In this document: positions 4,128 through 32,000 of the stretch, in pieces
Layout of the letters: each line of letters starts with the position of its first letter
How positions within the stretch are numbered: position 1 is the stretch's first letter
Assembly (NCBI GenBank): GCA_038858525.1
Contig: JAWCFL010000010.1
Coordinates: forward strand, 1-32,000
Length of the DNA stretch: 32,000 nucleotides
Direction: 5' to 3'
From: Candidatus Jordarchaeales archaeon
Lineage (GTDB): Archaea; Asgardarchaeota; Jordiarchaeia; Jordiarchaeales; Freyrarchaeaceae
Program-made: the position numbers and the translations under genes
Notes under the pieces: generated by a model
What the model saw: the letters and a program-made list of their open reading frames with translations, nothing else
Told to the model about the DNA's origin: nothing
Database searches by the model: none

Positions 4128-6080
4128 ATGATCAGGGAGTTTTATGTGTTTCAGAGGTCAGGAAACCCGGTGTTCCATAAAAGTTATGGTGAAAAAAGGG
4201 TTGATGAAGCTCTTCTTTCAGGATTCCTTGCGGCCGTCTTCTCCTTTGCGAAGGAGATAGGGCATGGTGAAATACAAAGCATGGTGATGAAGGATACTGT
4301 CTTTGTATATGAGGTAGCGGGGGATCTCATATTTGCTGTTGCCGTAGACATAGATGACGATGAAAATGCAGCGAGAAGTTTTCTTTCTCAAGCTATTTCA
4401 CTTTTCTCTGATTTTTACAAGGGTAGAGAGGAACAAGCAATCGACTTTTTCGGCGAAATACTGGGGCCGTTAATTATCGAGTATAACTCTCGGCTTATGG
4501 TTAAGGAAGTTTTCTGCACCCCTTTCCTGATTTCAGACGAGGAGGAAAGCGAAGAAGTTTCTCTTGCCGTGGCTTTCTTAATGTTGGAAAAGATGAAAGG
4601 TCAGAGGATCGGTTTACTTAAGAGGAAGAGCGTGTATATCCGTTCTGTTGCTAAGATCCTTTGGCCATTCTGGATTGTTCCTGCGGAGGCAGGAAGTTGC
4701 TTGATAGTGGATGGCTTGTTTAGGGAGCCAATTACAATAAAGTGTTTTTCACCTCCGGATTTGAAGGAAGAGGATCTAATAAGTTCGAAAAGCGACCCCT
4801 TGAAAGCGATCGATAAAATCGCCCGGACTTTGAAGGAGAAGGGCACTTATGAGACTTTTTCGATACCTGGCCTAGTTGGGTACGAATATGTTCAAGAGTT
4901 GACTTCGTTTTTCTCTTATGCACGAACCTCTAAGGTTAAGGATGCGGCCATTTTAAGTCCTATCATTGGTGAGGCTGAAGTTAACGGTGTGAAGGAGAAG
5001 TTTCTAGAGGTACTTAAGGCCGTTAAAGAAAACGCTGAAAAATTGAAAATAATAAGTGAGAAGGTAGTTGAGACGGCGGAGACGCATATTAAGAGTTTAG
5101 AAGAAGAAAAATTAAGGATAGAAAACGAATACCTAGAGAAAATTGAGAAGCTTAAGCAGGAAATCAGTGAAGAAAAGAGGAAGGCTGAGAAGGAAAAGAG
5201 CCAGATAAGGAGGGAGATAGGAGAATGGGCTTGCCAAATGGCAGGAAGAGATGTTGAGAACGCAAAGGAGGGTATGATTTCTCTTTCATCCTTCATGACG
5301 AGCGTCATCAATTTCGTTTCTAGTTCGCTTAAAGCAAGTGAGGGAGAGGAGGACAAATTAGGCCTTTTGGAAGAGTTTGTTTCGTTATTAGAGAAGTTAA
5401 AGTCCGAAATGAAAAATGTAAGTGAGGACATAAGACGTGTCGAGAAAGCAGTGCGTTTAGTTATTAATGAAGCACAGAAAAAGTACCAAGTCGCTGAGCA
5501 ACAAATCGAGAAAAAAATTTTGAACATGGAAAAAAGGGTGGATGACGTTAAGAGAGAAATGGAGGTGCAACTTTCATCAATAAGTAGGGTTAAGGAGAAG
5601 TATCGTGAAAAATTGAAGGGTATTTATAGTTACTTGGAAAAACACTTAAAAAGCCATGAGGCAGATATAGCTACGCTAACTGGATCCATGACAAAAACAT
5701 TTAATTTTGAAGGGGCATGCGTCATTTACTTGGTTGCTTACATAGCTGAGTTAAACGAGAACGGAAACACACAAACGATGATAATACCACCTGTGAACCT
5801 CACCAAGAAGCTCGAGGAAAAAGTGAAAATGGATGATGTGGCAAGCAGGTTGATGATGAGCTTTTTGAAAAAGAGGTTTGAAGAGCATTTAAGGGAACGC
5901 TGGTTCGCCGAAGAAGTTAGGAGGATTCTTGATGAAATGAACCTTCTTAAGCAGAGGGAGCTAGAGCCAAAAATATATGATGGATTGAATTCCCTGCTTC
6001 AGAGAGAATTCATTACAAAGAAAGAGTTCTCCTTAATGAAAATGAGTATGATAGAGCTTTTCAGGGAGAAGCCTAAATAG
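4128..6080 (+). CDS. Longin-domain protein with long coiled coil (Asgard eukaryotic-signature type)
   Basis: Residues about 1-120 (MIREFYVFQRSGNPVFHKSY...DEALLSGFLAAVFSFAKEIGHGEIQSMVMKDTVFVY...LIFAVAVD) fit the longin pattern. About 285-510 is E/K-rich heptad coiled coil with globular segments on each side. No TM helix or signal peptide. Confidence 0.75.
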   Translation: MIREFYVFQRSGNPVFHKSYGEKRVDEALLSGFLAAVFSFAKEIGHGEIQSMVMKDTVFVYEVAGDLIFAVAVDIDDDENAARSFLSQAISLFSDFYKGREEQAIDFFGEILGPLIIEYNSRLMVKEVFCTPFLISDEEESEEVSLAVAFLMLEKMKGQRIGLLKRKSVYIRSVAKILWPFWIVPAEAGSCLIVDGLFREPITIKCFSPPDLKEEDLISSKSDPLKAIDKIARTLKEKGTYETFSIPGLVGYEYVQELTSFFSYARTSKVKDAAILSPIIGEAEVNGVKEKFLEVLKAVKENAEKLKIISEKVVETAETHIKSLEEEKLRIENEYLEKIEKLKQEISEEKRKAEKEKSQIRREIGEWACQMAGRDVENAKEGMISLSSFMTSVINFVSSSLKASEGEEDKLGLLEEFVSLLEKLKSEMKNVSEDIRRVEKAVRLVINEAQKKYQVAEQQIEKKILNMEKRVDDVKREMEVQLSSISRVKEKYREKLKGIYSYLEKHLKSHEADIATLTGSMTKTFNFEGACVIYLVAYIAELNENGNTQTMIIPPVNLTKKLEEKVKMDDVASRLMMSFLKKRFEEHLRERWFAEEVRRILDEMNLLKQRELEPKIYDGLNSLLQREFITKKEFSLMKMSMIELFREKPK

Positions 6081-6082
6081 CT

Positions 6083-7204
6083 TCATGCATTAATTTTTAT
6101 GATCTCGTATGTTGTTGTCCTTTGGGCGGGTATTCTACCGCAGTCTCTTATTATCCTTTCTATTTCGCTTGGGGGGAGGTATTCTCCACTAGTGGATCCC
6201 GCTATTCTTGATATGTTCTCTTCCATTAGGGTTCCACCGAAGTCGTTGGCGCCCACGTTTAAGCAGAACTGGGCAAACTTCACACCAAGCTTAACCCATG
6301 AAACCTGTATGTTCTTTATTAGGTCGCCTAGCATCAACCTAGAAACCGCGTGTACTTTAATGTCTTCCAGTCCAGTTGCTCCCGGCCTAGATAAACCTGT
6401 TTTGTACAAGTTTGTCTTCTCGTGGACGAAGCTTAGAGGAACGAACTCTGTGAATCCTCCTGTTGATCTTTGAATTCGCCTGAGAAGGTCTATGTGTATC
6501 GCTTTGTCTCTTTCGCTTTCAATGTGACCATACATCATTGTGCTTGAAGTAGGTATTCCAATCCTATGAGCGGATTTAATTATTCGCACCCATTCGGCAA
6601 CTTTAATTTTGCGAGGGCACACTACGCGCCTAACCCTATCAACGAGTATCTCGGCGGCTGTTCCCGGCATCGAGTTCAACCCATTTTCTTTAAACGCTTT
6701 AAGCACTTCTTCCACATTCATGCCGGAGTTGACTGAAGCGTGCTTCACCTCCATGGGGCTAAAGGCGTGAATATGTATGCTGGATGAAACTTCTCTAACG
6801 GCTCTCAAAATATCTAAATATGTTTCTAAGTCCGCGTCGGGATGCAAACCACCCTGTATGCAGACCTCCGTCGCGCCAAGCTTAACGGCTTCTAAAACCT
6901 TCTTTTTTAGAGTTTCTAGGGGAGTGACATATCCTTCAGGGGAGTTGGGTGGTCTGCTGAATGCACAAAAGAGACAGTCATTTATACAAATGTTGGTGAA
7001 GTTTATGTTCCTGTTAATGACATATGTTACAACGTCTCCCACTATACGGCGTCTTAGTTCGTCGGCGACGTGAATCAGGGCGAAGAGCTCTTCACCCGTA
7101 ACCTTAAAGAGAATTTCAGCTTCTTTAACTGTAATAAGATGGCCATCTAAGGCTCTATCAAGTATATAACTTACTTCGCCATCTATAACGTTTAGCAGGT
7201 TTAA
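6083..7204 (-). CDS. cofH: FO synthase subunit 2 (radical SAM)
   Basis: NRNINFTNICINDCLFCAF (CxxxCxxC), EVCIQGGLHP, MPGTAAEIL, NIQVSW, GANDFGGTLMEENIS. The ORF track starts at GTG 7042, but the frame stays open with CofH-like sequence (ILDRALDG...ADELRRRIVGD) up to the cofG stop. The start is therefore placed at 7204 and is non-canonical (see findings). Confidence 0.9.
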   Translation of the reverse strand, partial: LNLLNVIDGEVSYILDRALDGHLITVKEAEILFKVTGEELFALIHVADELRRRIVGDVVTYVINRNINFTNICINDCLFCAFSRPPNSPEGYVTPLETLKKKVLEAVKLGATEVCIQGGLHPDADLETYLDILRAVREVSSSIHIHAFSPMEVKHASVNSGMNVEEVLKAFKENGLNSMPGTAAEILVDRVRRVVCPRKIKVAEWVRIIKSAHRIGIPTSSTMMYGHIESERDKAIHIDLLRRIQRSTGGFTEFVPLSFVHEKTNLYKTGLSRPGATGLEDIKVHAVSRLMLGDLIKNIQVSWVKLGVKFAQFCLNVGANDFGGTLMEENISRIAGSTSGEYLPPSEIERIIRDCGRIPAQRTTTYEIIKINA

Positions 7205-8298
7205 GGGTATCGCCTCCTGAAACCTTCTTTATCAGAAAGCGAAGCAACAACTTCAGCTACGGTATCTGAAAGGAAACAACCTTTTTTAATATACTTTGGG
7301 TATACGGGAAGCCTCTCTCTTAAGGTTGCGCCTACGCTTGCAACCATTTTCTCGATGGTTTCAATGCTTGGCCATGGGTTAGATGGATTAATGTAGTCTG
7401 GAGTTATGGGAGATATTCCTCCTAAATCGTTAGCGCCCATTTTGATCAATGAGGTTATTTTTCCCGGGTTCAGGTTTGGTGGAATCTGCAGGCTGATATC
7501 TTCCTGAAGCGTGACTCTTGCTAAAGCTACAATTTTTGAGAAATAGTTGAAGTCAGGTGGGGGATGGAAGCTCATCGGAGTATCCTTCTTCGGGATAAAA
7601 TTTTGTATAATGACTTCTTGGATATGCCCGTATTTCTTGTGGAGAGAACGTATCGCTTTAAGGCTTGCAATAACCTCACCTATTGTTTCGCCTATTCCGA
7701 TCAGGAGACCTGTTGTGAATGGAACCTTCCACTTTCCAGCATAATCAATCGTTTTCAGTCTTAGTTTAGGTTGTTTTCCAGGACTGTGTTCGTGGGGGCC
7801 GCCTGCGCCACATAATCTTTTGCTTGCGTTTTCAAGCATTAAGCCCATACTAGCATTTACCTCTTTAAGAGCTTTAACTTCTTCTTCGGTAAGCACGCCC
7901 GGATTACTGTGAGGTAGGAGGCCTAATTTGAGGGCCTCTAAGCACATGTCATAGAGATACTCCACAATGGAGCTGTAACCCATTCTTTGAAGTTCTTGCC
8001 GTATTGAGGGGTAAGCTTCCTCGGGTTTCTCTCCAAAGGTGAACAGTGCCTCTGAACAACAGGCTTTTTTTCCCTGTAACAGTATAGATTTGACTTCTTC
8101 AGGACGGAGAAGCCGGGCGTCGCTATCCCAAGGTTCTTTTCTAAAACCGCAGTAAGCGCACTTATTTCTGCAGAGGTTTACAAGTGGAATGAAGACGTTT
8201 TTTGAAAAAGTTATAGTGTCGCCGAAAGACCTCCTTCTTATGCTGTCAGCCAGCTGACCGACGCACTCTAACTCCTTCCACTCGCATTTTTCCAGCAA
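7201..8298 (-). CDS. cofG: FO synthase subunit 1 (radical SAM)
   Basis: ITFSKNVFIPLVNLCRNKCAYCGF, EALFTFGEKPE, LLPHSNPG, NASMGLMLE, PFTTGLLIGIGE, QIPPNL, GANDLGGISP. TTG start with GGAGG 8 nt upstream. Confidence 0.94.
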   Translation of the reverse strand: MLEKCEWKELECVGQLADSIRRRSFGDTITFSKNVFIPLVNLCRNKCAYCGFRKEPWDSDARLLRPEEVKSILLQGKKACCSEALFTFGEKPEEAYPSIRQELQRMGYSSIVEYLYDMCLEALKLGLLPHSNPGVLTEEEVKALKEVNASMGLMLENASKRLCGAGGPHEHSPGKQPKLRLKTIDYAGKWKVPFTTGLLIGIGETIGEVIASLKAIRSLHKKYGHIQEVIIQNFIPKKDTPMSFHPPPDFNYFSKIVALARVTLQEDISLQIPPNLNPGKITSLIKMGANDLGGISPITPDYINPSNPWPSIETIEKMVASVGATLRERLPVYPKYIKKGCFLSDTVAEVVASLSDKEGFRRRYP

Positions 8299-9416
8299 TT
8301 ATTTTGCCTCCTCGCCTTGGGAAATGAACCTAATATTTTCACGAAGCCGGCCTTCATGCCTATTTTTTCAATGGATTCCCTAACTTCAGGCTGCTCTATA
8401 TGCCCCTCCAAGTCTATGAAGAAAATGTAGTCGCCCAATATTTTTTTGCTAGGCCTAGATTCTATCCTAGTAAGGTTAATGTTCCGTTCTTTGAACTCCT
8501 CAAGGACCTCACATAGCGCTCCCGGTCTATCCTGAAGTAGGAAGATCGCTATAGATGTCTTGTCCTCGCCCGTAGGTGGCATGTCCTTCGTGCCTATAAC
8601 TGCAAAGCGGGTCTCGTTAGTCTGCTCATCCTGTATTCCTCTCGCAAGAACCAGTAGACCATAAAGCTCTGCCGCCATGGCACTACCTATAGCTGCAACA
8701 TCGTGAGCGTCATTTAGAGCTACCAGCCTAACGGCCTCCGCTGTGCTGCTTGTCTCGTAGAGGCGGGCTTGGGGCAGGTTTTTAGCCAAAAAGTTTCTAC
8801 ACTGCGCCAAAGCTTGAGGGTGAGAGTAAACAGCTGTTATCTCGTTAAAATCTATTTTTTCTTTACCTAACAAGCTGTGCTCTACGGGAAGTATTATTTC
8901 ACCACAAATCTTAACGTTACTCCTAACGAGGAGGTCTAGAGTGGTAGTCACGGATCCTTCTACTGAGTTTTCTATGGGTAGAACTCCCATGTCGGCATGT
9001 CCATTCTCAACCATGGAAATTACTCCTGATATGGTGGTTATAGGGATAAGCTCCGCGTCAATATCATTAAAGAACTTTCTTGTTGCTTCCTCAGTGAACG
9101 TTCCTCTTGGCCCGAGATATGCGACCCTGAGGAGGTTTTTCCTAATTTCGTGCTCAATGTCTCTTCCTTTCTTGATTATCCTCATAAAAATGTCCTGTGT
9201 AAAACTCCAATCTAAACCCTTCTCTTTAGATATCCTTTCAACCCGAGACATTATTTCTGCTTCTCTCTGCACGTCCTTTACGCCGAGTTTAAGGCGAGAC
9301 TTAACGTGTGCTATTTCCTTGATAAGGTTCATTCGCTCCGCAAGCAACTCAATAAGTTTTTCGTCCAAAACATCAACTTTACTTCTTAGCGCTCTCAGCA
9401 ATTTCTCGTCAGACAA
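8268..9416 (-). CDS. pheA: Bifunctional chorismate mutase / prephenate dehydratase with ACT domain (P-protein)
   Basis: N-terminal AroQ-type CM (LRSKVDVLDEKLIELLAER...REAEI), VAYLGPRGTFTEEA, PIENSVEGSV, SHPQALAQC, NETRF, INLTRIESRP. TTG start. Confidence 0.95.
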   Translation of the reverse strand: MSDEKLLRALRSKVDVLDEKLIELLAERMNLIKEIAHVKSRLKLGVKDVQREAEIMSRVERISKEKGLDWSFTQDIFMRIIKKGRDIEHEIRKNLLRVAYLGPRGTFTEEATRKFFNDIDAELIPITTISGVISMVENGHADMGVLPIENSVEGSVTTTLDLLVRSNVKICGEIILPVEHSLLGKEKIDFNEITAVYSHPQALAQCRNFLAKNLPQARLYETSSTAEAVRLVALNDAHDVAAIGSAMAAELYGLLVLARGIQDEQTNETRFAVIGTKDMPPTGEDKTSIAIFLLQDRPGALCEVLEEFKERNINLTRIESRPSKKILGDYIFFIDLEGHIEQPEVRESIEKIGMKAGFVKILGSFPKARRQNNCWKNASGRS

Positions 9417-21852: not shown

Positions 21853-23202
21853 TTGAGCTTCAGAGTTGGAGGGGTTGTCCTTTCACGGCTTTTACTAGCG
21901 CTATCTGTCATTTTAACCCCGATTTACTTTCTGCTTTTATTTGCTTTTTCACCAGTCAAATTACGTCCTGCTCCTTTACCATTTGACATAGTAGTTGCCA
22001 ATTATCCTTTATTTCATAGTATTTTGCAGTACTCTGGGTTTGAACAACCATGGATCATGGTGATTAACTACATTTTTGCTCCTCTTTTTTTCTCTCTTCC
22101 ATGGCTTCTTTTCGTTGCCTTGAACCACGAAAGGATTATCAGAACCTTTGAGGTGCTGGACGCAACGACGACGATAGTTCCTCTAAGATACAGAATTTTT
22201 TACGGTTTTAATACATTGCTTTTACTGGTATTTTTCCTTCTCCCCGCCTTATTCCCTGTTTTGAGCGTTGTTTCAAGCGTGATTCTCGTTGGCAGGGTGC
22301 TTAACACTAGTGAGTGGTTCTGGAGACATGGAAAGATAGTGAAAATAGCTACATGCATTATAGCCTTCACCGTCATATGTTGGGGACCAGTTTACCTGAC
22401 CGCGTTATACTATTTGGAAAGGCTCCACGTTTTTCTAACTAGTTGGCTCTGGGACTTATGGGCAAACAACATGGTAATAACATACACTGTTTCCATGTGT
22501 ATAGTTAACGCGCTGGCTATAGGGTCTATTGTGTGGCTAATATTTGCTGGCTCAGCCGAGTTTGAAGCTAAGACCTTCGGAGTCGCTTTAACCAAGCCAC
22601 CTTATAGAGCAATAGCCATACTTGAAGCGGTGTTCTTCATATTATTCATTTATATCGGATTGCCATACATTTACGTTCCGGGGTGGCCTCCTCGTTACCT
22701 TATTTGGGGAAGCAACCCGAGCATCTTATATGACAGAATAAATTACATTTGTTTAGGCTTAATATCACTAGTTACTCTGGTGGGAATGACTAAAGGTCTA
22801 AGAAGACGCACATTCAATTTCTCTCTTTTTGGATTGATTATAGCTGGAGGATTCCTAGGGTTAGACATGGTTACAGGTAACTACATTAGGACGCTTGCCA
22901 TCCTGCCAAAGATGCTTACACCGTTTATCCTGAGCGTTACTTTATCATCTCCTTGGGGGCTTTTAACGATGGATATAAACTATTTTTTGAACCTTTATAT
23001 CCCCTACTATGAGCTTCCGAGAGCTCTCATGCAGAACTACTTTTTTGGAGGTGCGCAGACAGCGCTTACCCTAGCTATGTACGTTGTGATGCTCATCCAT
23101 AGCTCAGTGACTCACGTAACCAGCGCCATGACATTGACTGCGCTAATATGGGTTACCACGACCATTTACTGTTTCGCTAAGGCAGGGACAACGAGGGGGT
23201 GA
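21853..23202 (+). CDS. Polytopic membrane protein of unknown function (roughly 10-12 TM)
   Basis: 449 aa, many hydrophobic 20-aa segments, GGAGG RBS, TTG start. No family motif recognised. Confidence 0.75.
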   Translation: MSFRVGGVVLSRLLLALSVILTPIYFLLLFAFSPVKLRPAPLPFDIVVANYPLFHSILQYSGFEQPWIMVINYIFAPLFFSLPWLLFVALNHERIIRTFEVLDATTTIVPLRYRIFYGFNTLLLLVFFLLPALFPVLSVVSSVILVGRVLNTSEWFWRHGKIVKIATCIIAFTVICWGPVYLTALYYLERLHVFLTSWLWDLWANNMVITYTVSMCIVNALAIGSIVWLIFAGSAEFEAKTFGVALTKPPYRAIAILEAVFFILFIYIGLPYIYVPGWPPRYLIWGSNPSILYDRINYICLGLISLVTLVGMTKGLRRRTFNFSLFGLIIAGGFLGLDMVTGNYIRTLAILPKMLTPFILSVTLSSPWGLLTMDINYFLNLYIPYYELPRALMQNYFFGGAQTALTLAMYVVMLIHSSVTHVTSAMTLTALIWVTTTIYCFAKAGTTRG

Positions 23203-25314: not shown

Positions 25315-26238
25315 TTGAACGTTATCGCATCGTGTGGCAAGGTAAAGATATACAGGTGTAAAACGAATTATTTCTCTTTGTTTAATAGTCCCTATTACGC
25401 TCATAGTTATGGAGGGGCGATCGACATTTATTTCTTAGATGAGGAGCGCGTTTTTCCATGTTTAACCCCTGGTAGGATTGTCGGTATTAGAACAGTTAAA
25501 GCGGCATCTATGAAAAAGTTCTATCATAGTGACTTTGATTATGTGACGCTGATCGAGAGCAGAGAAGACCCAAGTTTAATTGTCAGAATAATGCATATTA
25601 AACCATTCGTGAAGGAAGGAGAACACTTAAATGTAGGAAGACCCGTGGGGGAGCCTTTGCGGAGCGGCTTTTTTGATCCTTGGACAAGTTTACACGCTCA
25701 CTTAGAGATAAAAACTCCCGATTACGCCTTTAGAGCGAAAGGCTCCCTCCCTATAGACTTGAAGATCGATGGTGAAGTTGAAGGTGAAGCGGTGGAGGAT
25801 ATTCTCTTTAGGGTAGTCCATGTCAACGATTTTTTTGTGCTGGTAGAGCTTGAAGAAGGATGCACGGTAAGGTTAGGAGAAGTTAGAGGGTTAGGAGTCA
25901 AGATCGGAGGGAGCATTGGAATTCTCGATTGCGGTTTCCCTCACTATGCAAGGGGGGGAGTTATGCTTGCTCAGGGGAGTAAGGTACAATTAGGCGACCA
26001 GGTTAAGCTTGGTGGTCTAGTTATAGGGAGAGTAAATGGTTTTATACATAATGGAGCCCGAGTTCTCTTAGAGAAAGTTTCTCTGGAATGTGAGGGGGTT
26101 CGGTTGAGAGGGATTTCTGCTTTTCTAAGTTTAAATGAGAAATGCTTAATGAAATTAATCCCTTTAAAGGGAGAGAAAGTAGAGTTCAAGAAGGGAGAAA
26201 TCATTCGGTTAGAGTTTAACAAGGAGGGTTTCCGTTGA
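25315..26238 (+). CDS. M23/LytM-like zinc metallohydrolase-fold protein, cytoplasmic, function unknown
   Basis: SPYYAHSYGGAIDIY (H...D), IMHIKP..VKEGEHLNVGRPVG, LHAHLEI (HxH) in M23 order. No signal peptide. Confidence 0.6.
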   Translation: MNVIASCGKVKIYRCKTNYFSLFNSPYYAHSYGGAIDIYFLDEERVFPCLTPGRIVGIRTVKAASMKKFYHSDFDYVTLIESREDPSLIVRIMHIKPFVKEGEHLNVGRPVGEPLRSGFFDPWTSLHAHLEIKTPDYAFRAKGSLPIDLKIDGEVEGEAVEDILFRVVHVNDFFVLVELEEGCTVRLGEVRGLGVKIGGSIGILDCGFPHYARGGVMLAQGSKVQLGDQVKLGGLVIGRVNGFIHNGARVLLEKVSLECEGVRLRGISAFLSLNEKCLMKLIPLKGEKVEFKKGEIIRLEFNKEGFR

Positions 26239-26516
26239 CTGGAAACGCTAGGTTAAAGGTTCCAGGAGGAAAAATGATAGAGGCGGAGGTAGAGTTAGAG
26301 GGAAAATTGATAAGATATGTGCGGATAACAGGTGACTTTTATTTTCATCCTGAGGAGGAACTTGAAGAGCTGGAAGAAACATTGAAGGGGGCACCTATCC
26401 ATGCATTATATGAACTTGTCGAAAAGTTTCTTAAAGAGAAAAAGGTTACGCTTGTTGGGATTGATGCAAAAGACATCGTCAAAGTGATACTTAATGCAGC
26501 TGGGCAACGAGATTAA
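26235..26516 (+). CDS. lplB: Lipoate-protein ligase C-terminal accessory subunit (LplB-like)
   Basis: KVPGGKMIEAEVE...VRITGDFYFHPEEELEELEETLKG...GIDAKDI, typical of the LplA C-terminal domain. TTGA overlap with the upstream gene. Confidence 0.85.
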   Translation: MTGNARLKVPGGKMIEAEVELEGKLIRYVRITGDFYFHPEEELEELEETLKGAPIHALYELVEKFLKEKKVTLVGIDAKDIVKVILNAAGQRD

Positions 26517-26523
26517 TTTATTT

Positions 26524-27837
26524 TTAGAGAGATTCACGAGTTTGACTTATTAATTCTTCTGATATTATTTTTTCTTTGCCTTCCCAGAGTTCTTCAAGAA
26601 TTAAGTCAAAGATTCTCGAAGCCACAATTTTTTTGTTCGAGAGAGAAATGTGATGAACGTTTTCCCTTTTATCTATTACGTAGACTTCGTTGGATTCTGC
26701 GGAGAAGCCTGCGTTCGGCTTTGACACGTCGTTGGCGACTATCATATCCAAGTTTGCGTTTCTAAGTTTTTTTATCGCTCGTGAAATTAGCTCTTCTTTT
26801 GAGACCCCGTACTCTGCTTTAAACCCAACTAAGAAGGCCTTTGGTGCAGCTAATCTTATAGCGTCTATCACTTTAGGCAAAGGCTTCAGGGAGATTTGGA
26901 GGTTCTCTTTTCCAGATGGTATTTTTTCGTTAACCTTGCTTTCAGGGGCATAATCTGAGACCGCCGCGGCGCATATTATTATGTCATAGCATTTTTCTCC
27001 TACTTCGGAGAGAGCGGCATCTAGCATTTCCTTTGTGGTTTCAACTCTAATGACCTTAACGTTGAAAGGAGGCTCCGCCGTTCCGGGACCATATATGAGG
27101 GTTACCTCTGCGCCTCGGAGAGCTGCTTCTTCCGCCAGCGCGACGCCCATCTTGCCACTACTAGGATTACTAATGTACCTTACTGCATCTATGTATTCTC
27201 GTGTTGGTCCTCCAGTGATTAAAACCTTTAGTCCTTTCATGTCCTTTTTCTTTGAGAGAATTTCGATTACCCTAGCTACTATCGTGTTTATGTGGGCGAT
27301 TTTCGCTTTTCCTTCTTCAAAGCGGGGGCCTATTATTTCGATTCCATACGCTTCTAGGCGTTTTAGGTTTTCTAGTATTATTGGGTGGTGGTACATCGAC
27401 TCGTGCATTGCAGGCACAACCACTACAGGGATCTTCGCGCCTATCGCCGTTGTGACTACCGTGGTAACGGGAGTGTCGTCAATGCCGTAAGCGATCTTGC
27501 TTATTGTATTTGCTGTGGCTGGAGCAACGAGCACTATGGAAACGGCGTTTGGGTGTTCTCCAGCAAGAGAGATGTGCTCTACCATTCCAGTTAGCTCGGT
27601 TACAACAGGATTTCCTGTAGCCCACTCCATTAGCGCGGGGGAGATCAGTTTTGTAGCTGCAGGCGACATCACCGCATATACTTCTGCCCCGTGACGCATT
27701 AATTCTCTAGCAATTATTGGACATTCTACTGCCGCCACGCTACCTGTTATGCAAAGAGCGATCTTTTTCCCCTTAAGGATCTGGCTTTTAGTCCCGATGA
27801 TCTGCTTCGAGGTGTGTTCGGGAAGCAATAATAACAA
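26524..27837 (-). CDS. coaBC: Phosphopantothenoylcysteine decarboxylase / phosphopantothenate-cysteine ligase
   Basis: ITGSVAA, APATANTISK, PAMHESMY, ITGGPTREYIDAVRYISNPSSGKMG, AAVSDY, VGFKAE, IVAND. Confidence 0.97.
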   Translation of the reverse strand: MLLLLPEHTSKQIIGTKSQILKGKKIALCITGSVAAVECPIIARELMRHGAEVYAVMSPAATKLISPALMEWATGNPVVTELTGMVEHISLAGEHPNAVSIVLVAPATANTISKIAYGIDDTPVTTVVTTAIGAKIPVVVVPAMHESMYHHPIILENLKRLEAYGIEIIGPRFEEGKAKIAHINTIVARVIEILSKKKDMKGLKVLITGGPTREYIDAVRYISNPSSGKMGVALAEEAALRGAEVTLIYGPGTAEPPFNVKVIRVETTKEMLDAALSEVGEKCYDIIICAAAVSDYAPESKVNEKIPSGKENLQISLKPLPKVIDAIRLAAPKAFLVGFKAEYGVSKEELISRAIKKLRNANLDMIVANDVSKPNAGFSAESNEVYVIDKRENVHHISLSNKKIVASRIFDLILEELWEGKEKIISEELISQTRESL

Positions 27838-28015: not shown

Positions 28016-28990
28016 TTAATGCGTCCTGGTCAAGTGTGAGTTACCGAGATATTTTGGTTTTAGGACAGCGTTGTAATGGTCTCTGAGGCTATATTCTGCT
28101 ACACCTAAAGACTGCGCAATCAATTTCTGTGTCAAAATGGAGGAGCAACCTCTCCGGAGTGCTAGAAGTTTATCGGCACAGTATATTACTGCCGCAGTGA
28201 AAATGTATGGTCTTCTTCCGCCTTTCTCCTTCTTCGTCTCGGCGAGGATCCTCATGCACATACTTATTAGCTCTCTTCTGTAATCCTCAACACTCATCCC
28301 TTTTTCCTCTAGTTTGAGAATGACATTTTTCGATCCTAGCAGGGCGTTTATCGCTCTTGGAAGGTATTCTTCACTTCTACGCAGTGTTTGATGTACACCT
28401 GTAACTTTTCGGATTAAAAATGCTGCCTTCAGCAACTTTTTTGGGGCAACTTTGTATCCCATCGATTTGAAGGCTTCTGTTATTTCTATTAGTGTTACCG
28501 GCGCATGCGTTTTCTGCTCTCTTACGGCGTGAAGGAGGCATGCTGCCATGAGGAGTATGTGGTTACTAACTTTTAGTTGCTGGATGGCACGTTTGTACAA
28601 GTTTATTGCGCGCTCCCTTACAATGGCTGGGAGATCAAGGCGTTCAGATACATATTTGAGTGCAGAGAACGCTCTATAGTGCGTCGCACATAGAGTTCTC
28701 ATCTTGTCTTGAATAGCTTTGATTTTCAGTCTTTTGTAGATGGCTTGGCTTTTAGGTGAAACCATATTACCCTTCGAGTCTCTAAAGATGAAGGCGTCTT
28801 TGTAATCAATGTAACTTCCTACTTGAGTTTCAGGGTACACCCATGCACCTCTAGTATGCTCCTTTGAGGATATGTAGAAAAGAGGGGATACTATGTGTCG
28901 CTCAACGACAAGCCCGCAGTTTGGGCATACATAATAACCTTCATATTCTACAGCGTCCACGTCACATTCCTGGCATTTCAAAAGGGACAC
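28016..28990 (-). CDS. tfb: Divergent transcription initiation factor IIB (TFB) paralog
   Basis: Zn ribbon CQEC-x12-CPNCG, two cyclin-fold repeats (LDLPAIVRERAINLY...AACL; GRRPYIFTAAVIY), C-terminal HTH TQKLIAQSLGVAEYSLR. Start is GTG 28990 or 29017. Confidence 0.85.
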   Translation of the reverse strand: MSLLKCQECDVDAVEYEGYYVCPNCGLVVERHIVSPLFYISSKEHTRGAWVYPETQVGSYIDYKDAFIFRDSKGNMVSPKSQAIYKRLKIKAIQDKMRTLCATHYRAFSALKYVSERLDLPAIVRERAINLYKRAIQQLKVSNHILLMAACLLHAVREQKTHAPVTLIEITEAFKSMGYKVAPKKLLKAAFLIRKVTGVHQTLRRSEEYLPRAINALLGSKNVILKLEEKGMSVEDYRRELISMCMRILAETKKEKGGRRPYIFTAAVIYCADKLLALRRGCSSILTQKLIAQSLGVAEYSLRDHYNAVLKPKYLGNSHLTRTH

Positions 28991-29307
28991 ACGTAACACC
29001 CTTAACGGGAAACCCACACCGAAAATTAATCTCTTTTCAGGATGAGGAGGAAGCTATAGAGGACTGTGTGGTACCATAAGAAAACCATTAAGACTCTTTA
29101 AGAAGAAAGAGGTAAAGTAGACTAAAAAAGAGCAACGAGCAACTAAGTTAGGTCATCGTATACGCCTTGAATCTTTAGCCTGGCCAATCTGAAAATCTTG
29201 CGTAATACTCTTTAAAGGGATGTAAAATGTTCCCCTGCGTGTAATTAGTTTAAGCTTCAAGTGAAAGCGAATAAGCGTATTTACCTATGCTTTCGCTTTT
29301 CATCAAA

Positions 29308-29374: not shown

Positions 29375-30310
29375 ATGGTTTTACAGTTGACCTCCAAATT
29401 TTCGAAGGCTTTCTGTCCGGCGCATATCACGTGCTTTTTCCAAATATTTGACAAGTCAGGAAACCCGCTAGAGGTCGGGTCTAGAGGCGCCGGGATATGT
29501 TTGGACAGAGGAATAACTACCATGGTTAAAGTGGAGATTGCTAAGGAGAACCATTTGGAAATAATTATTAACCCAGATATAGGAGAGCCTAAAGTTACTA
29601 GAAGTGCGGCTGAAAGAATGGTGAAACTTGCAAACGAAAAGTACTCGAAAAACTACAAGGTAACCGTGATGCAAAAAATGGATGTTCCAGTGTATGCTGG
29701 GTTTGGCTCTAGCGGTGCTGCAGCCTTCAGCACTGCCTTGGCTCTCAATGACGCATTAGGGTTAGGCCTCACGAAAAATAGGGTAGGGCAGATAGCACAC
29801 TTATCTGAGATTGAAAATCTCACGGGGCTAGGCGACGTTGCAGCCCAAAACGTTGGAGGCGTAGAAATAAGGGTAAAAGAAGGGGCACCGGGTTATGGAG
29901 TAGTGGACAACATACCGGTCTCGGAAGAATATGTTGTGGTCTGCGGCTCAATAGGCGGATTAGAGACGAAGAGCGTAATTTCTCGAAAAGATAAGAAGGA
30001 ACAAATAAATGCGGCTGGAAAAAGCCTCGTAGAAGAACTGATAAAAGACGCGACAATAGAGAAAGTGGCTCTTTTAGCGAAGAGGTTCACTATGGAAACA
30101 GGGTTAATGACGAAAAAAGTAGAGGAAGCGATTCTTGCACTTGAAAAAGAAGGGTTTGAATATTGTGGTATGATAATGCTGGGTGAAAGTGTCTTCTGCA
30201 TCACCACCAAGAAAAAGGCAAAAAAAGCATATAGGGTGCTTAGAAAATGTATGCCTCAAGGCTTCATTAAGATTTGCAAAATAGATTTTAGAGGAGCAAG
30301 ACTGGTGTAA
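29375..30310 (+). CDS. Pantoate kinase (GHMP family)
   Basis: AFCPAHITCFF, GSRGAG, PVYAGFGSSGA, AHLSEIENLTGLGDV, GMIMLGESVF, adjacent to phosphopantothenate synthetase. Confidence 0.93.
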   Translation: MVLQLTSKFSKAFCPAHITCFFQIFDKSGNPLEVGSRGAGICLDRGITTMVKVEIAKENHLEIIINPDIGEPKVTRSAAERMVKLANEKYSKNYKVTVMQKMDVPVYAGFGSSGAAAFSTALALNDALGLGLTKNRVGQIAHLSEIENLTGLGDVAAQNVGGVEIRVKEGAPGYGVVDNIPVSEEYVVVCGSIGGLETKSVISRKDKKEQINAAGKSLVEELIKDATIEKVALLAKRFTMETGLMTKKVEEAILALEKEGFEYCGMIMLGESVFCITTKKKAKKAYRVLRKCMPQGFIKICKIDFRGARLV

Positions 30311-30330: not shown

Positions 30331-31128
30331 ATGGACGAAATTCCGCCAGGTCACCCTAGGGCTGAGTCATTAAGAATAAGGCATAAGTTGATTCATGGAA
30401 TGGAGAACAAAGTTGTGGCTAAAGCAGGACTTATCGCGCATGGTAGAGGAGAAGCGTTTGATTATCTTTTAGGCGAGAAAACCCAACCACCAGCAATGGA
30501 AGCGGTACGTGCTGCTGTTTCAGCTCTCCTGCTAGCAAAGTACCCTGTTATAAGTGTTAATGGCAACCTGGCGGCTCTATCACCAAGAGAGGTCGTGGAG
30601 CTTGCTAAAGAAGTAAACGCCAAAATAGAGATAAATCTCTTCTACAGAAGTCAAGAAAGAATTGAAGCAATAAGGAAAGTTCTGGAGGAAGCAGGGGCAA
30701 AGGAGATCTTAGGGGTAGGAGAAACCGCCGATGGAGAAATTCCAGAAATATCAAGTGTTAGGAGAGTTGTTGACCGGCGAGGTATAATGATAGCAGATGT
30801 AGTCCTCGTTTCCATTGAGGATGGTGATAGAACGCAAGCACTTAGAAAACTGGGAAAAACGGTTATCGCTATAGATCTAAACCCGCTTAGTAGGACTGCA
30901 AAGTACGCTAACATAACAATAGTCGACAATATAGTTAGATGTATGCCTCTCCTCGTAGAAGAAGCAAGAAGGCTCAAAGGATACCCAAAGGAGCGACTGA
31001 AAGAGATTGTAGAAAAATACGATAATAAGAAGGTTCTGGCAGACATGTTAAGAATAATAAGAGATAGGTTAACAGCAATAGCTGAAGCTGGAGGAACCAT
31101 ACCTGACGACTTTGAAAAAGCACTTTAG
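30331..31128 (+). CDS. 4-phosphopantoate--beta-alanine ligase (phosphopantothenate synthetase)
   Basis: IPPGHPRAESLRIR, GLIAHGRGEAFDYLLGEKT, VISVNGN, EINLFYRS, EDGDR, IDLNPLSRT, VDNIVR. Confidence 0.96.
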   Translation: MDEIPPGHPRAESLRIRHKLIHGMENKVVAKAGLIAHGRGEAFDYLLGEKTQPPAMEAVRAAVSALLLAKYPVISVNGNLAALSPREVVELAKEVNAKIEINLFYRSQERIEAIRKVLEEAGAKEILGVGETADGEIPEISSVRRVVDRRGIMIADVVLVSIEDGDRTQALRKLGKTVIAIDLNPLSRTAKYANITIVDNIVRCMPLLVEEARRLKGYPKERLKEIVEKYDNKKVLADMLRIIRDRLTAIAEAGGTIPDDFEKAL

Positions 31129-31160: not shown

Positions 31161-32000
31161 TTGAGAGTTGCAGTCTTGGGAGCAGGAGCTATAGGAAGCC
31201 TTTTCGGGGGAATGCTAGCAAGAACCGGTGTTAAGGTAATACTGATAGGCCGGAAAGAACATGTGGAAATGATAAGAAAAAGAGGATTAAAGATAATAGA
31301 GGAAAGCGGGGAGGCTTTTACAGTTAGAGTGGAAGCAACGACAAACCCACTAGAGGCGGGTAAAGCAGATACAGTCTTCTTAACTGTTAAGGCATACGAC
31401 ACTAGGAGGGCAGCAATGGATGCTAGGCCATTGTTAAAAGAAGACAGTTTAGTTGTTTGCATGCAAAACGGGTTAGATACGGAGAAAGAAGCTGCTGATG
31501 TCCTAGGAAAGGAAAACGTTTTTCGAGGGGTAACTTCTGAGGGGGCTCAGCTCGTGGAGCCGGGAGTTGTGCGTCATGCTGGTAGAGGAGAGAGCTTAGT
31601 GGGGTCTCCTTTCGGTATCTCGCTGCAAAGAGCAAAGAGCGTTGCCGAGATTCTTAGAGAAGCGGGCTTTAATGCAAATGTCACGGACAACATTGAAAGA
31701 GAAGTTTGGGGAAAGGCGCTCGTTAACGCCGGAATAAACCCTATTGGGGCTATAACGGGACTTAGAAACGGTGAGATACTTGAGCATCCACCCCTCTTAG
31801 AAGTTATGAAGAAGCTTATTGCGGAGGGGAAAAAAGTTGCTAAGAAGCATAATATCACATTGACGGAGGACCCCTTCACTAAAGCTGTCAAGATTGCAGA
31901 GATGACTGCCACTAACAAGAACTCCATGCTTCAGGATATAGAAAAGGGCAAAAAAACTGAAATAGACTATATTAATGGTGCGATAGTTGCTTATGGTAAA
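31161..32000 (+). CDS. panE: 2-dehydropantoate 2-reductase (runs off the window edge)
   Basis: Not in the ORF track; translated by hand from TTG 31161: MRVAVLGAGAIGSLFGGML...LTVKAYDT...MQNGL...WGKALVNAGINP...NSMLQD...TEIDYINGAIV. Confidence 0.94.
   Translation, partial: MRVAVLGAGAIGSLFGGMLARTGVKVILIGRKEHVEMIRKRGLKIIEESGEAFTVRVEATTNPLEAGKADTVFLTVKAYDTRRAAMDARPLLKEDSLVVCMQNGLDTEKEAADVLGKENVFRGVTSEGAQLVEPGVVRHAGRGESLVGSPFGISLQRAKSVAEILREAGFNANVTDNIEREVWGKALVNAGINPIGAITGLRNGEILEHPPLLEVMKKLIAEGKKVAKKHNITLTEDPFTKAVKIAEMTATNKNSMLQDIEKGKKTEIDYINGAIVAYGK

Follow-up and report, generated by a model that had tools for sequence, protein, structure and literature searches.

A gene pair in the genome of a Candidatus Jordarchaeales archaeon joins a cytoplasmic M23-like protein, a member of the Pfam family DUF8155, to LplB, the small subunit of a bipartite lipoate-protein ligase. 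The pair lies in the 32,000-nucleotide stretch of DNA analysed here (the window: positions 1 to 32,000 of contig JAWCFL010000010.1, assembly GCA_038858525.1). The gene orders found around DUF8155 homologs indicate that the protein very probably functions in protein lipoylation. The reaction that we tentatively propose for it, hydrolysis of the amide bond of N6-octanoyl- or lipoyl-lysine, is given a probability of a little under 0.4. The pair and its junction are located as follows:

25315..26238, + strand: DUF8155 gene (open reading frame (ORF) call), TTG start, TGA stop; 307 amino acids (aa), M23-like, cytoplasmic
26235..26516, + strand: lplB gene, small subunit of the bipartite lipoate-protein ligase, TTG start; 93 aa; matches NF053749 and PF10437
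26223..26238, + strand: GGAGG ribosome-binding site inside the DUF8155 gene and TTGA stop/start overlap, read directly from the sequence

The two genes overlap by 4 nt: at the junction (cgTTGAct at 26235-26238) the TGA stop codon of the first (26236-26238) overlaps the TTG start codon of the second (26235-26237), as the earlier note on this DNA had read it. A GGAGG sequence is found at 26223-26227, 7 nt upstream from the lplB TTG, and the sole alternative start codon, ATG at 26274, is located downstream from the conserved N-terminal motif KVPGGK; the TTG start and the coupling of the two genes are supported by both observations. This suggests that the two genes are translationally coupled in this genome, with joint production of their products and possibly a pair or complex. 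The lplB product matches the NCBIfam equivalog NF053749 over residues 7-88 of 93 (67.3 bits; cutoff 65) and the Pfam family PF10437 (Lip_prot_lig_C; 27.2 bits; cutoff 24), and is therefore a stand-alone LplB above the curated equivalog cutoff.

LplB had been described in the earlier note as an orphan. This is correct for the window, where neither LplA nor LipS1 or LipS2 was found in any of the six frames, but not for the genome, which carries two ligase systems, one split and one fused. A split LplA large subunit is located at a contig end (C30:18121-18732), and a second cluster (C9:43179-46840 of this genome, G000; loci L002 and L087) encodes LipS1 (241 bits), a LipS2-like protein whose score of 210 bits falls short of the cutoff (270), and a 543-aa protein in which LplA, LplB and DUF116 are fused. 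Three GcvH-type carriers are encoded elsewhere in the genome (C11:61456-61818, C24:21200-21553 and C2:5186-5548), and no E2-type lipoyl domain was found in it.

The neighbourhoods of DUF8155 were analysed at 76 loci of species-representative genomes from Jordarchaeia, Freyrarchaeia, other Asgard archaea, Bathyarchaeia, Desulfurococcales and one member of the Thermoplasmata. ORFs were called at all loci and all neighbours were clustered without prior labels; these loci and the window form the unbiased set. LipS1 and LipS2 were identified with NCBIfam equivalog models, each scoring above its cutoff (341.5 against 270 and 249.2 against 230). The most frequent neighbour cluster was LplA/LplB, present at 36 loci, followed by CoaBC at 11. 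In the unbiased set, LplA, LplB, LipS1 or LipS2 was found within 5 kb of DUF8155 in 19 of the 32 loci having at least 5 kb on both flanks, and a lipoylation gene within 3 kb in 19 of the 38 having at least 3 kb, against a chance expectation of about 1-3% estimated from the three lipoylation loci in this 2.09-Mb genome. At least seven different gene orders link DUF8155 to lipoylation genes:

Type A: DUF8155 followed by LplB, overlapping or at most 14 nt apart; the window and nine relatives
Type B: DUF8155, LipS2, LplA and LplB, in this order on the same strand; 7/7 fetched loci, from seven genera of one Asgard family (f7)
Type C: lplB-lplA convergent to DUF8155, with an 11-nt overlap of the 3' ends; ten loci of Bathyarchaeia
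Type D: lplB-lplA 1-7 kb upstream of DUF8155, same strand; eight loci
Type E: lplB-lplA directly upstream of DUF8155; locus L080
Type G: Lpl(AB), LipS1 and LipS2 followed by a divergent DUF8155-like gene; 10/10 complete Thermoprotei genomes of 1.8-3.0 Mb
Type H: LipS1, DUF8155, LipS2, LplB and LplA, all adjacent; locus L140

The distance between DUF8155 and LplB ranged from -4 to +14 nt in the ten type A loci. Type B order, judged by coordinates, was found in at least 25 of the 28 DUF8155-positive genomes of family f7, and again at locus L034, with LipS1 convergent. Same-strand operons, with genes overlapping or 0-25 nt apart, account for many of the linked cases, and the linked loci are spread over at least six deep clades of a 90-member tree of the family. 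The neighbourhood survey proposed in the earlier note thus showed DUF8155 to be strongly associated, in arrangements that were reshuffled several times, with lplA, lplB, lipS1 and lipS2; with gcvH or E2 genes, which the note had also proposed to look for, no association was found in the DUF8155 neighbourhoods. Loci devoid of lipoylation genes showed no other recurring theme: their neighbours were ADH, PurP-like, FrhB, PIN, glyoxalase-like and RraA genes.

The phyletic pattern was examined in 201 Asgard genomes, 86 of them of high quality. DUF8155 occurs in 60 of the 201 (28 of the 86), LipS2 in 137 and LplA in 190; since LplA is nearly universal in Asgard archaea, its profile is uninformative. 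All 60 DUF8155-positive genomes have LplA and LipS-type genes. LipS2 was detected at E <= 1e-40 in 57 of them, and the remaining three have LipS1 next to LplA, together with a divergent radical-SAM gene. The eight Asgard families without LipS2 (51 genomes) have no DUF8155.

In Bathyarchaeia, a conserved 87-aa basic protein is encoded about 70 nt upstream from DUF8155, on the same strand (L028:9628-9888, + strand, and eight other loci); it has no Pfam or NCBIfam match and by eye resembles a small winged-helix regulator. In family f7 (L092-L098, e.g. L092:1599-2972, + strand), a flavoprotein of about 457 aa belonging to the geranylgeranyl-reductase family is encoded directly before DUF8155-LipS2-LplA-LplB, and is itself preceded by a TrmB-like regulator. 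This flavoprotein could be a LipT-like electron donor or simply a lipid reductase. Its identity as LipT could not be shown: the best match was the DGGGPL (digeranylgeranylglycerophospholipid) reductase model at 445-464 bits, below the cutoff of 580, and the gene was not counted as evidence.

The assignment of the 307-aa protein to its family comes from precomputed matches: a protein identical to that of the window (P0001) carries matches to PF26482 (DUF8155) and PF26483 (DUF8155_C), as do nearly all homologs. Both families are newer than the Pfam copy used for our scans, in which, as in NCBIfam, the window protein had no match. No assigned function was found for DUF8155, and the source names found for homologs are all hypothetical protein, except for one automatic annotation as MepM/NlpD. 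At E <= 0.001, the family has 301 clusters in a set of 1.84 billion representatives. The best 150 representative matches listed are of about 130-390 aa, and fused forms of 584-2000 aa were looked for and not found. DUF8155 is a single-copy gene, widespread across Asgard families, Bathyarchaeia and Thermoprotei. Within the genus of the window organism, one DUF8155 match (G006:C2:180215-181132) contains a single in-frame TAG, and matches in the genomes G009 and G167 also have in-frame stops; pseudogenes or errors of assembly may account for them.

A structural model of the protein was built with AlphaFold2 (AF2) from a 25-member alignment (predicted local distance difference test, pLDDT, 93.2; predicted template modelling score, pTM, 0.91). 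The domains and motifs are placed as follows:

25336..25764, + strand: N-terminal M23/LytM-fold domain, residues 8-150 (VIA-align; Foldseek with the AF2 model)
25402..25425, + strand: H30-x6-D37 (codons 25402-25404 and 25423-25425), variant of the M23 HxxxD motif; both residues invariant
25594..25596, + strand: H94, counterpart of the mid-domain M23 His; invariant; hhalign to MepM
25693..25701, + strand: H127-A-H129, HxH motif; invariant; aligned to the 2638A endolysin and MepM
25789..26235, + strand: C-terminal beta-barrel domain, residues 159-307 (Pfam DUF8155_C), with the loop L204-D205-x-G207-x-P209-H210-Y211

The earlier note had reported a 307-aa protein with H-x6-D and HxH in M23/LytM order, and both motifs are present in it. 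In VIA-align comparisons, residues 8-150 of the model matched EnpA (6smk) with a Z of 11.8 and a root mean square deviation of 2.8 A over 118 residues, and lysostaphin, LytM and SpoIIQ with a Z of 10-11. All top Foldseek matches of the AF2 model were M23 proteins, with a probability of 1.00 to many M23 chains. When aligned to E. coli MepM by hhalign, H94 pairs with the His of YMHL, and H127 and H129 pair with HLH. A search of the PDB with the family profile returned one marginal match (E 0.21), the M23 domain of the phage 2638A endolysin, again with HxH aligned to HLH. Weak PF01551 matches were obtained for 18 of the 25 family members, the best having an E-value of 1.2e-5 and 24-26 bits, under the gathering cutoff of 28.7; Pfam's own threshold is reached neither by the best family members nor by the window protein. 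In P0030, residues 31-135 align to profile positions 4-92, the match beginning just before the GLD of H-x6-D; the region of the Asp is thus aligned with the profile, but the His is three residues farther away than in HxxxD. The relationship to M23/LytM proteins that the earlier note had seen in the motifs is therefore upheld by the fold, by the alignment of the motifs to MepM and the 2638A endolysin and by the weak profile matches.

H30, D37, H94, H127 and H129 are invariant in the alignment of 25 homologs and also in a wider alignment of 12 sequences that includes the Thermoprotei branch, at 22-24% identity. Among the 25 members, NSPY before H30 and an RSGFF..W loop before HxH are likewise invariant, and the columns of the loop LDxGxPHY of the C-terminal domain are invariant or nearly so; P209 of this loop is still invariant in the 12-sequence alignment. 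Since the five candidate catalytic residues are conserved even at such low identity, DUF8155 appears to be an active enzyme rather than a degenerate LytM-type regulator. Judged by its motifs and its predicted fold, the protein is a divergent cytoplasmic relative of the M23 peptidases that keeps the full set of candidate catalytic residues, and on the same residues it is probably zinc dependent. Fold matches of the C-terminal domain were at background level (Z 5-6.5 to Pbp11 (7anu), MreC barrels, PF0907 and protease half-barrels), and a search of the ESM Atlas with this domain gave no usable match.

The Kyte-Doolittle hydropathy profile of the protein showed neither a signal peptide nor a membrane segment. 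The N-terminus is not hydrophobic (mean of 0.02 for residues 1-19) and the maximum for any 19-residue window is 1.36, in agreement with the lack of an export signal stated in the earlier note and with a cytoplasmic location. The hosts of DUF8155 are Asgard archaea, Bathyarchaeia and Thermoprotei, none of which, to our knowledge, has murein.

We propose that DUF8155 would work together with the archaeal LplA/LplB ligase and the LipS1/LipS2 lipoyl-synthase pathway. The narrow M23 groove would take the unbranched lysyl-octanoyl or lysyl-lipoyl arm in place of a Gly-Gly or cross-bridge amide, and the N6-acyl-lysine amide would be cut by a water molecule activated by Zn. This amide is favoured as the substrate because it is flanked by unbranched methylenes, like the Gly-Gly bonds preferred by M23 grooves. 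Some M23 enzymes, MepM and ShyA among them, cut amides formed with a side-chain amino group (D-Ala-mDAP). The octanoate or lipoate freed would then be re-activated with ATP by LplA/LplB, the outcome being either the salvage of these acids from carriers that are damaged or degraded, or the proofreading of those that are wrongly acylated or dead-end. The co-encoded ATP-dependent ligase accepts only free acids (PMC10332631), i.e. the form in which the acyl group would be released. In the window organism, DUF8155 would be made together with LplB, and the two may act as a pair.

Several observations weigh against hydrolysis of an acyl-lysine amide by DUF8155. The window protein itself gave no match to PF01551 at E <= 0.1, and its first motif is Hx6D, not HxxxD. 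No lipoylation neighbour was found in 13 of the 32 well-flanked loci, nor in several whole clades, and several whole Asgard families that have LipS2 and LplA lack DUF8155, so that the protein would be an accessory and not an essential component of the pathway. An amidase placed within a biosynthetic operon would require a rationale such as salvage or proofreading. In the Thermoprotei branch, the RSGFF..W loop and two arginines (that at position 140 being one), otherwise invariant in most of the family, are lost, and substrate contacts may differ between this branch and the others. In addition, in 7 of the 10 Thermoprotei operons (L127-L136, e.g. L130:7346-8371, + strand) the next gene after the DUF8155-like one lies on the same strand, encodes about 340 aa and belongs to the histone deacetylase (HDAC) family; the three that were scanned all match PF00850, with 188-216 bits. 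HDAC-family enzymes are classical acyl-lysine deacylases. By its family match, this gene would encode a second Zn amidohydrolase of the lipoate operon, and if it is the deacylase, DUF8155 would do something else there.

These points bear on an alternative with a chance not far below even, namely that DUF8155 has a role in lipoylation other than that of an acyl-lysine amidase. As a peptidase, it could trim lipoylated carriers or imported lipoyl-peptides, so that another enzyme (e.g. the HDAC-like neighbour) and the ligase recycle the cofactor; as a hydrolase, it could release octanoate from acyl-CoA or acyl-AMP for use by the ligase; and as a metal-binding adaptor, it could bring the carrier or LplB to LipS2 or LplA. 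A role of this kind shares all the linkage evidence given above, the tight coupling to LplB fits a physical partnership, and the HDAC-family gene of the Thermoprotei is the more conventional candidate for a deacylase. M23 enzymes are amide hydrolases, and no hydrolase of thioesters or phosphoanhydrides is known to us to have this fold, which argues against the release of octanoate from acyl-CoA or acyl-AMP; a purely structural adaptor would hardly keep the complete set of candidate catalytic residues invariant, and neither peptide transporters nor proteases recur in the neighbourhoods. On the other side, the literature leaves open where archaeal LplAB obtains free octanoate, and bacterial LipS1/LipS2 clusters also hold accessory genes of unknown role, lipX, lipT and lipY (PMC10332631).

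That DUF8155 is instead a housekeeping cytoplasmic metallopeptidase, linked to lipoate genes by inherited synteny or chance, is unlikely. The well-flanked loci and clades devoid of lipoylation neighbours would be explained in this way, the LplA phyletic profile does not speak against it, and the pair is always found beside CoaBC as well in the clade of the window, an indication that genes can stay neighbours for no functional reason. However, synteny alone would not restore the proximity after each rearrangement, and the linkage is seen in at least seven gene orders and at least six deep clades, from Asgard archaea, Bathyarchaeia and Thermoprotei. Many of these cases are also tightly spaced same-strand operons, and no other gene family recurs around DUF8155.

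The CoaBC neighbour raises the further alternative of an amidase of coenzyme A (CoA) or pantetheine metabolism, which we consider improbable. A CoA-biosynthesis cluster does adjoin the pair directly, in the window as in the type A relatives:

26524..27837, - strand: CoaBC, convergent with LplB, start of an archaeal CoA-biosynthesis cluster (TIGR00521, 414.9 bits)
28016-29017, - strand: TFB gene, interrupting the CoA cluster
29375-30310, + strand: pantoate-kinase-like GHMP kinase
30331-31128, + strand: phosphopantothenate synthetase
31161-32000, + strand: ketopantoate reductase, running off the window

CoaBC is, however, convergent and not co-transcribed with the pair. As a neighbour it was found in the type A relatives only (cluster c2, 11 loci against the 36 of the Lpl cluster), and the CoA genes are absent from the arrangements of family f7, Bathyarchaeia and Thermoprotei.

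Least probable of all, and very nearly dismissed, is a peptidoglycan hydrolase exported or injected against bacteria, like the archaeal M23 protein Woldo: the fold, the one MepM/NlpD annotation, the existence of archaeal M23 peptidoglycan hydrolases and the fact that about two thirds of archaeal homologs of such hydrolases have no recognised signal peptide (PMC12352652) would allow it, but DUF8155 has neither a signal peptide or membrane segment nor a peptidoglycan-binding domain, fused forms are rare, the gene is operonic with cofactor-assembly genes, and it is single-copy and widely held, unlike the rare, bacterial-derived genes of the Woldo type (PMC12352652). The known archaeal M23 hydrolases are modular, often with signal peptides, and of bacterial origin (PMC12352652).

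Compared with the M23/LytM enzymes (lysostaphin, LytM, EnpA, MepM, ShyA), DUF8155 has the same beta-fold (Z 10-11.8), the same order of conserved residues (His...Asp, mid-domain His, HxH) and, in most members, a weak PF01551 signal. It differs from them in being cytoplasmic, in occurring in hosts without murein, in having Hx6D for HxxxD and in scoring below the Pfam cutoff. It also has, packed onto the M23-like domain, a family-specific C-terminal beta-barrel domain with a conserved loop of its own, and its genetic context is cofactor assembly and not the cell wall. EnvC and NlpD, degenerate LytM proteins that activate Zn amidases, offer a likeness in that a LytM-fold gene stands beside that of a Zn amidohydrolase, the HDAC-like gene of the Thermoprotei operons. 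EnvC and NlpD have lost the metal ligands, whereas DUF8155 keeps all candidate ones.

The hydrolysis of the N6-lipoyl-lysine amide that we propose for DUF8155 is also the reaction of the known lipoamidases, namely Lpa of Enterococcus faecalis (amidase-signature family), the sirtuins CobB and SIRT4, and biotinidase. DUF8155 has no sequence or fold relation to any of these, and no match to the Pfam families Amidase, SIR2 or CN_hydrolase; a metallo-M23 lipoamidase would thus be a new solution to lipoyl-lysine hydrolysis. The amidotransferase LipL of Bacillus likewise acts on octanoyl or lipoyl groups already on the carrier lysine, but belongs to the LplA/LipB fold family, unlike DUF8155. LipL acts through an acyl-enzyme thioester. 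As an M23 site has no such nucleophile, transfer by DUF8155 would need hydrolysis followed by ATP-dependent re-ligation. Enzymes replacing LipL, so far unknown, may exist (PMC10332631).

The accessory proteins LipT, LipX and LipY of the sLpl(AB)/LplAB-LipS1/LipS2 clusters (Tanabe et al. 2023, PMC10332631) resemble DUF8155 in having an unproven role and in being encoded within, or overlapping, the ligase and synthase genes. LipT is a flavoprotein and LipX, the start of whose gene overlaps the slpl(AB) stop, a putative glutamine amidotransferase (PMC10332631). Their folds are unrelated to that of DUF8155, which belongs to archaeal clusters and is absent from that account: the LplAB-LipS1/LipS2 papers name LipT, LipX and LipY as accessory genes and no M23-like protein (PMC10332631). 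Our search of the literature on DUF8155, archaeal lipoamidases, LipX and cytoplasmic archaeal M23 proteins found no description of the protein. What appears to be new, by its motifs and modelled structure, is a known fold, M23, in a new cellular place and a new pathway.

The archaeal LplAB-LipS1/LipS2 route was established only recently, and the source of free octanoate or lipoate, the maintenance of lipoyl groups or their movement between carriers, and the roles of the accessory genes are its open ends (PMC10332631). A conserved enzyme-like protein wired into the lipoate clusters of several archaeal phyla, including the Asgard relatives of eukaryotes, is a concrete candidate, and its Thermoprotei operon form occurs in complete genomes that appear to come from cultured strains. 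In the fullest form of our proposal, which we rate as slightly less probable still, DUF8155 would be an acyl-lysine hydrolase, the first in cofactor metabolism to be a metalloenzyme of M23 fold; hydrolysis by DUF8155 and re-ligation by LplB/LplA would make up a cycle through which octanoyl and lipoyl groups are salvaged, proofread or redistributed among carriers. This would be a new component of the LplAB-LipS1/LipS2 route, common to Asgard archaea, Bathyarchaeia and Thermoprotei. If so, a fold known almost only from the cleavage of cell walls has been taken over by cofactor metabolism within the cell, and the MepM/NlpD annotations on these archaeal genes would be corrected.

Elsewhere in the window, two long ORFs have no Pfam match. 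One, of 650 aa, is located at 4128-6080 on the + strand; the other, of 449 aa, at 21853-23202 on the + strand, has many hydrophobic stretches, resembles a polytopic membrane protein and is conserved in the same place in two relatives. At 6083-9416 on the - strand, a pair of adjacent radical-SAM genes, of which one is CofH/MqnC-like, is located beside a gene for a chorismate mutase-prephenate dehydratase-ACT protein.

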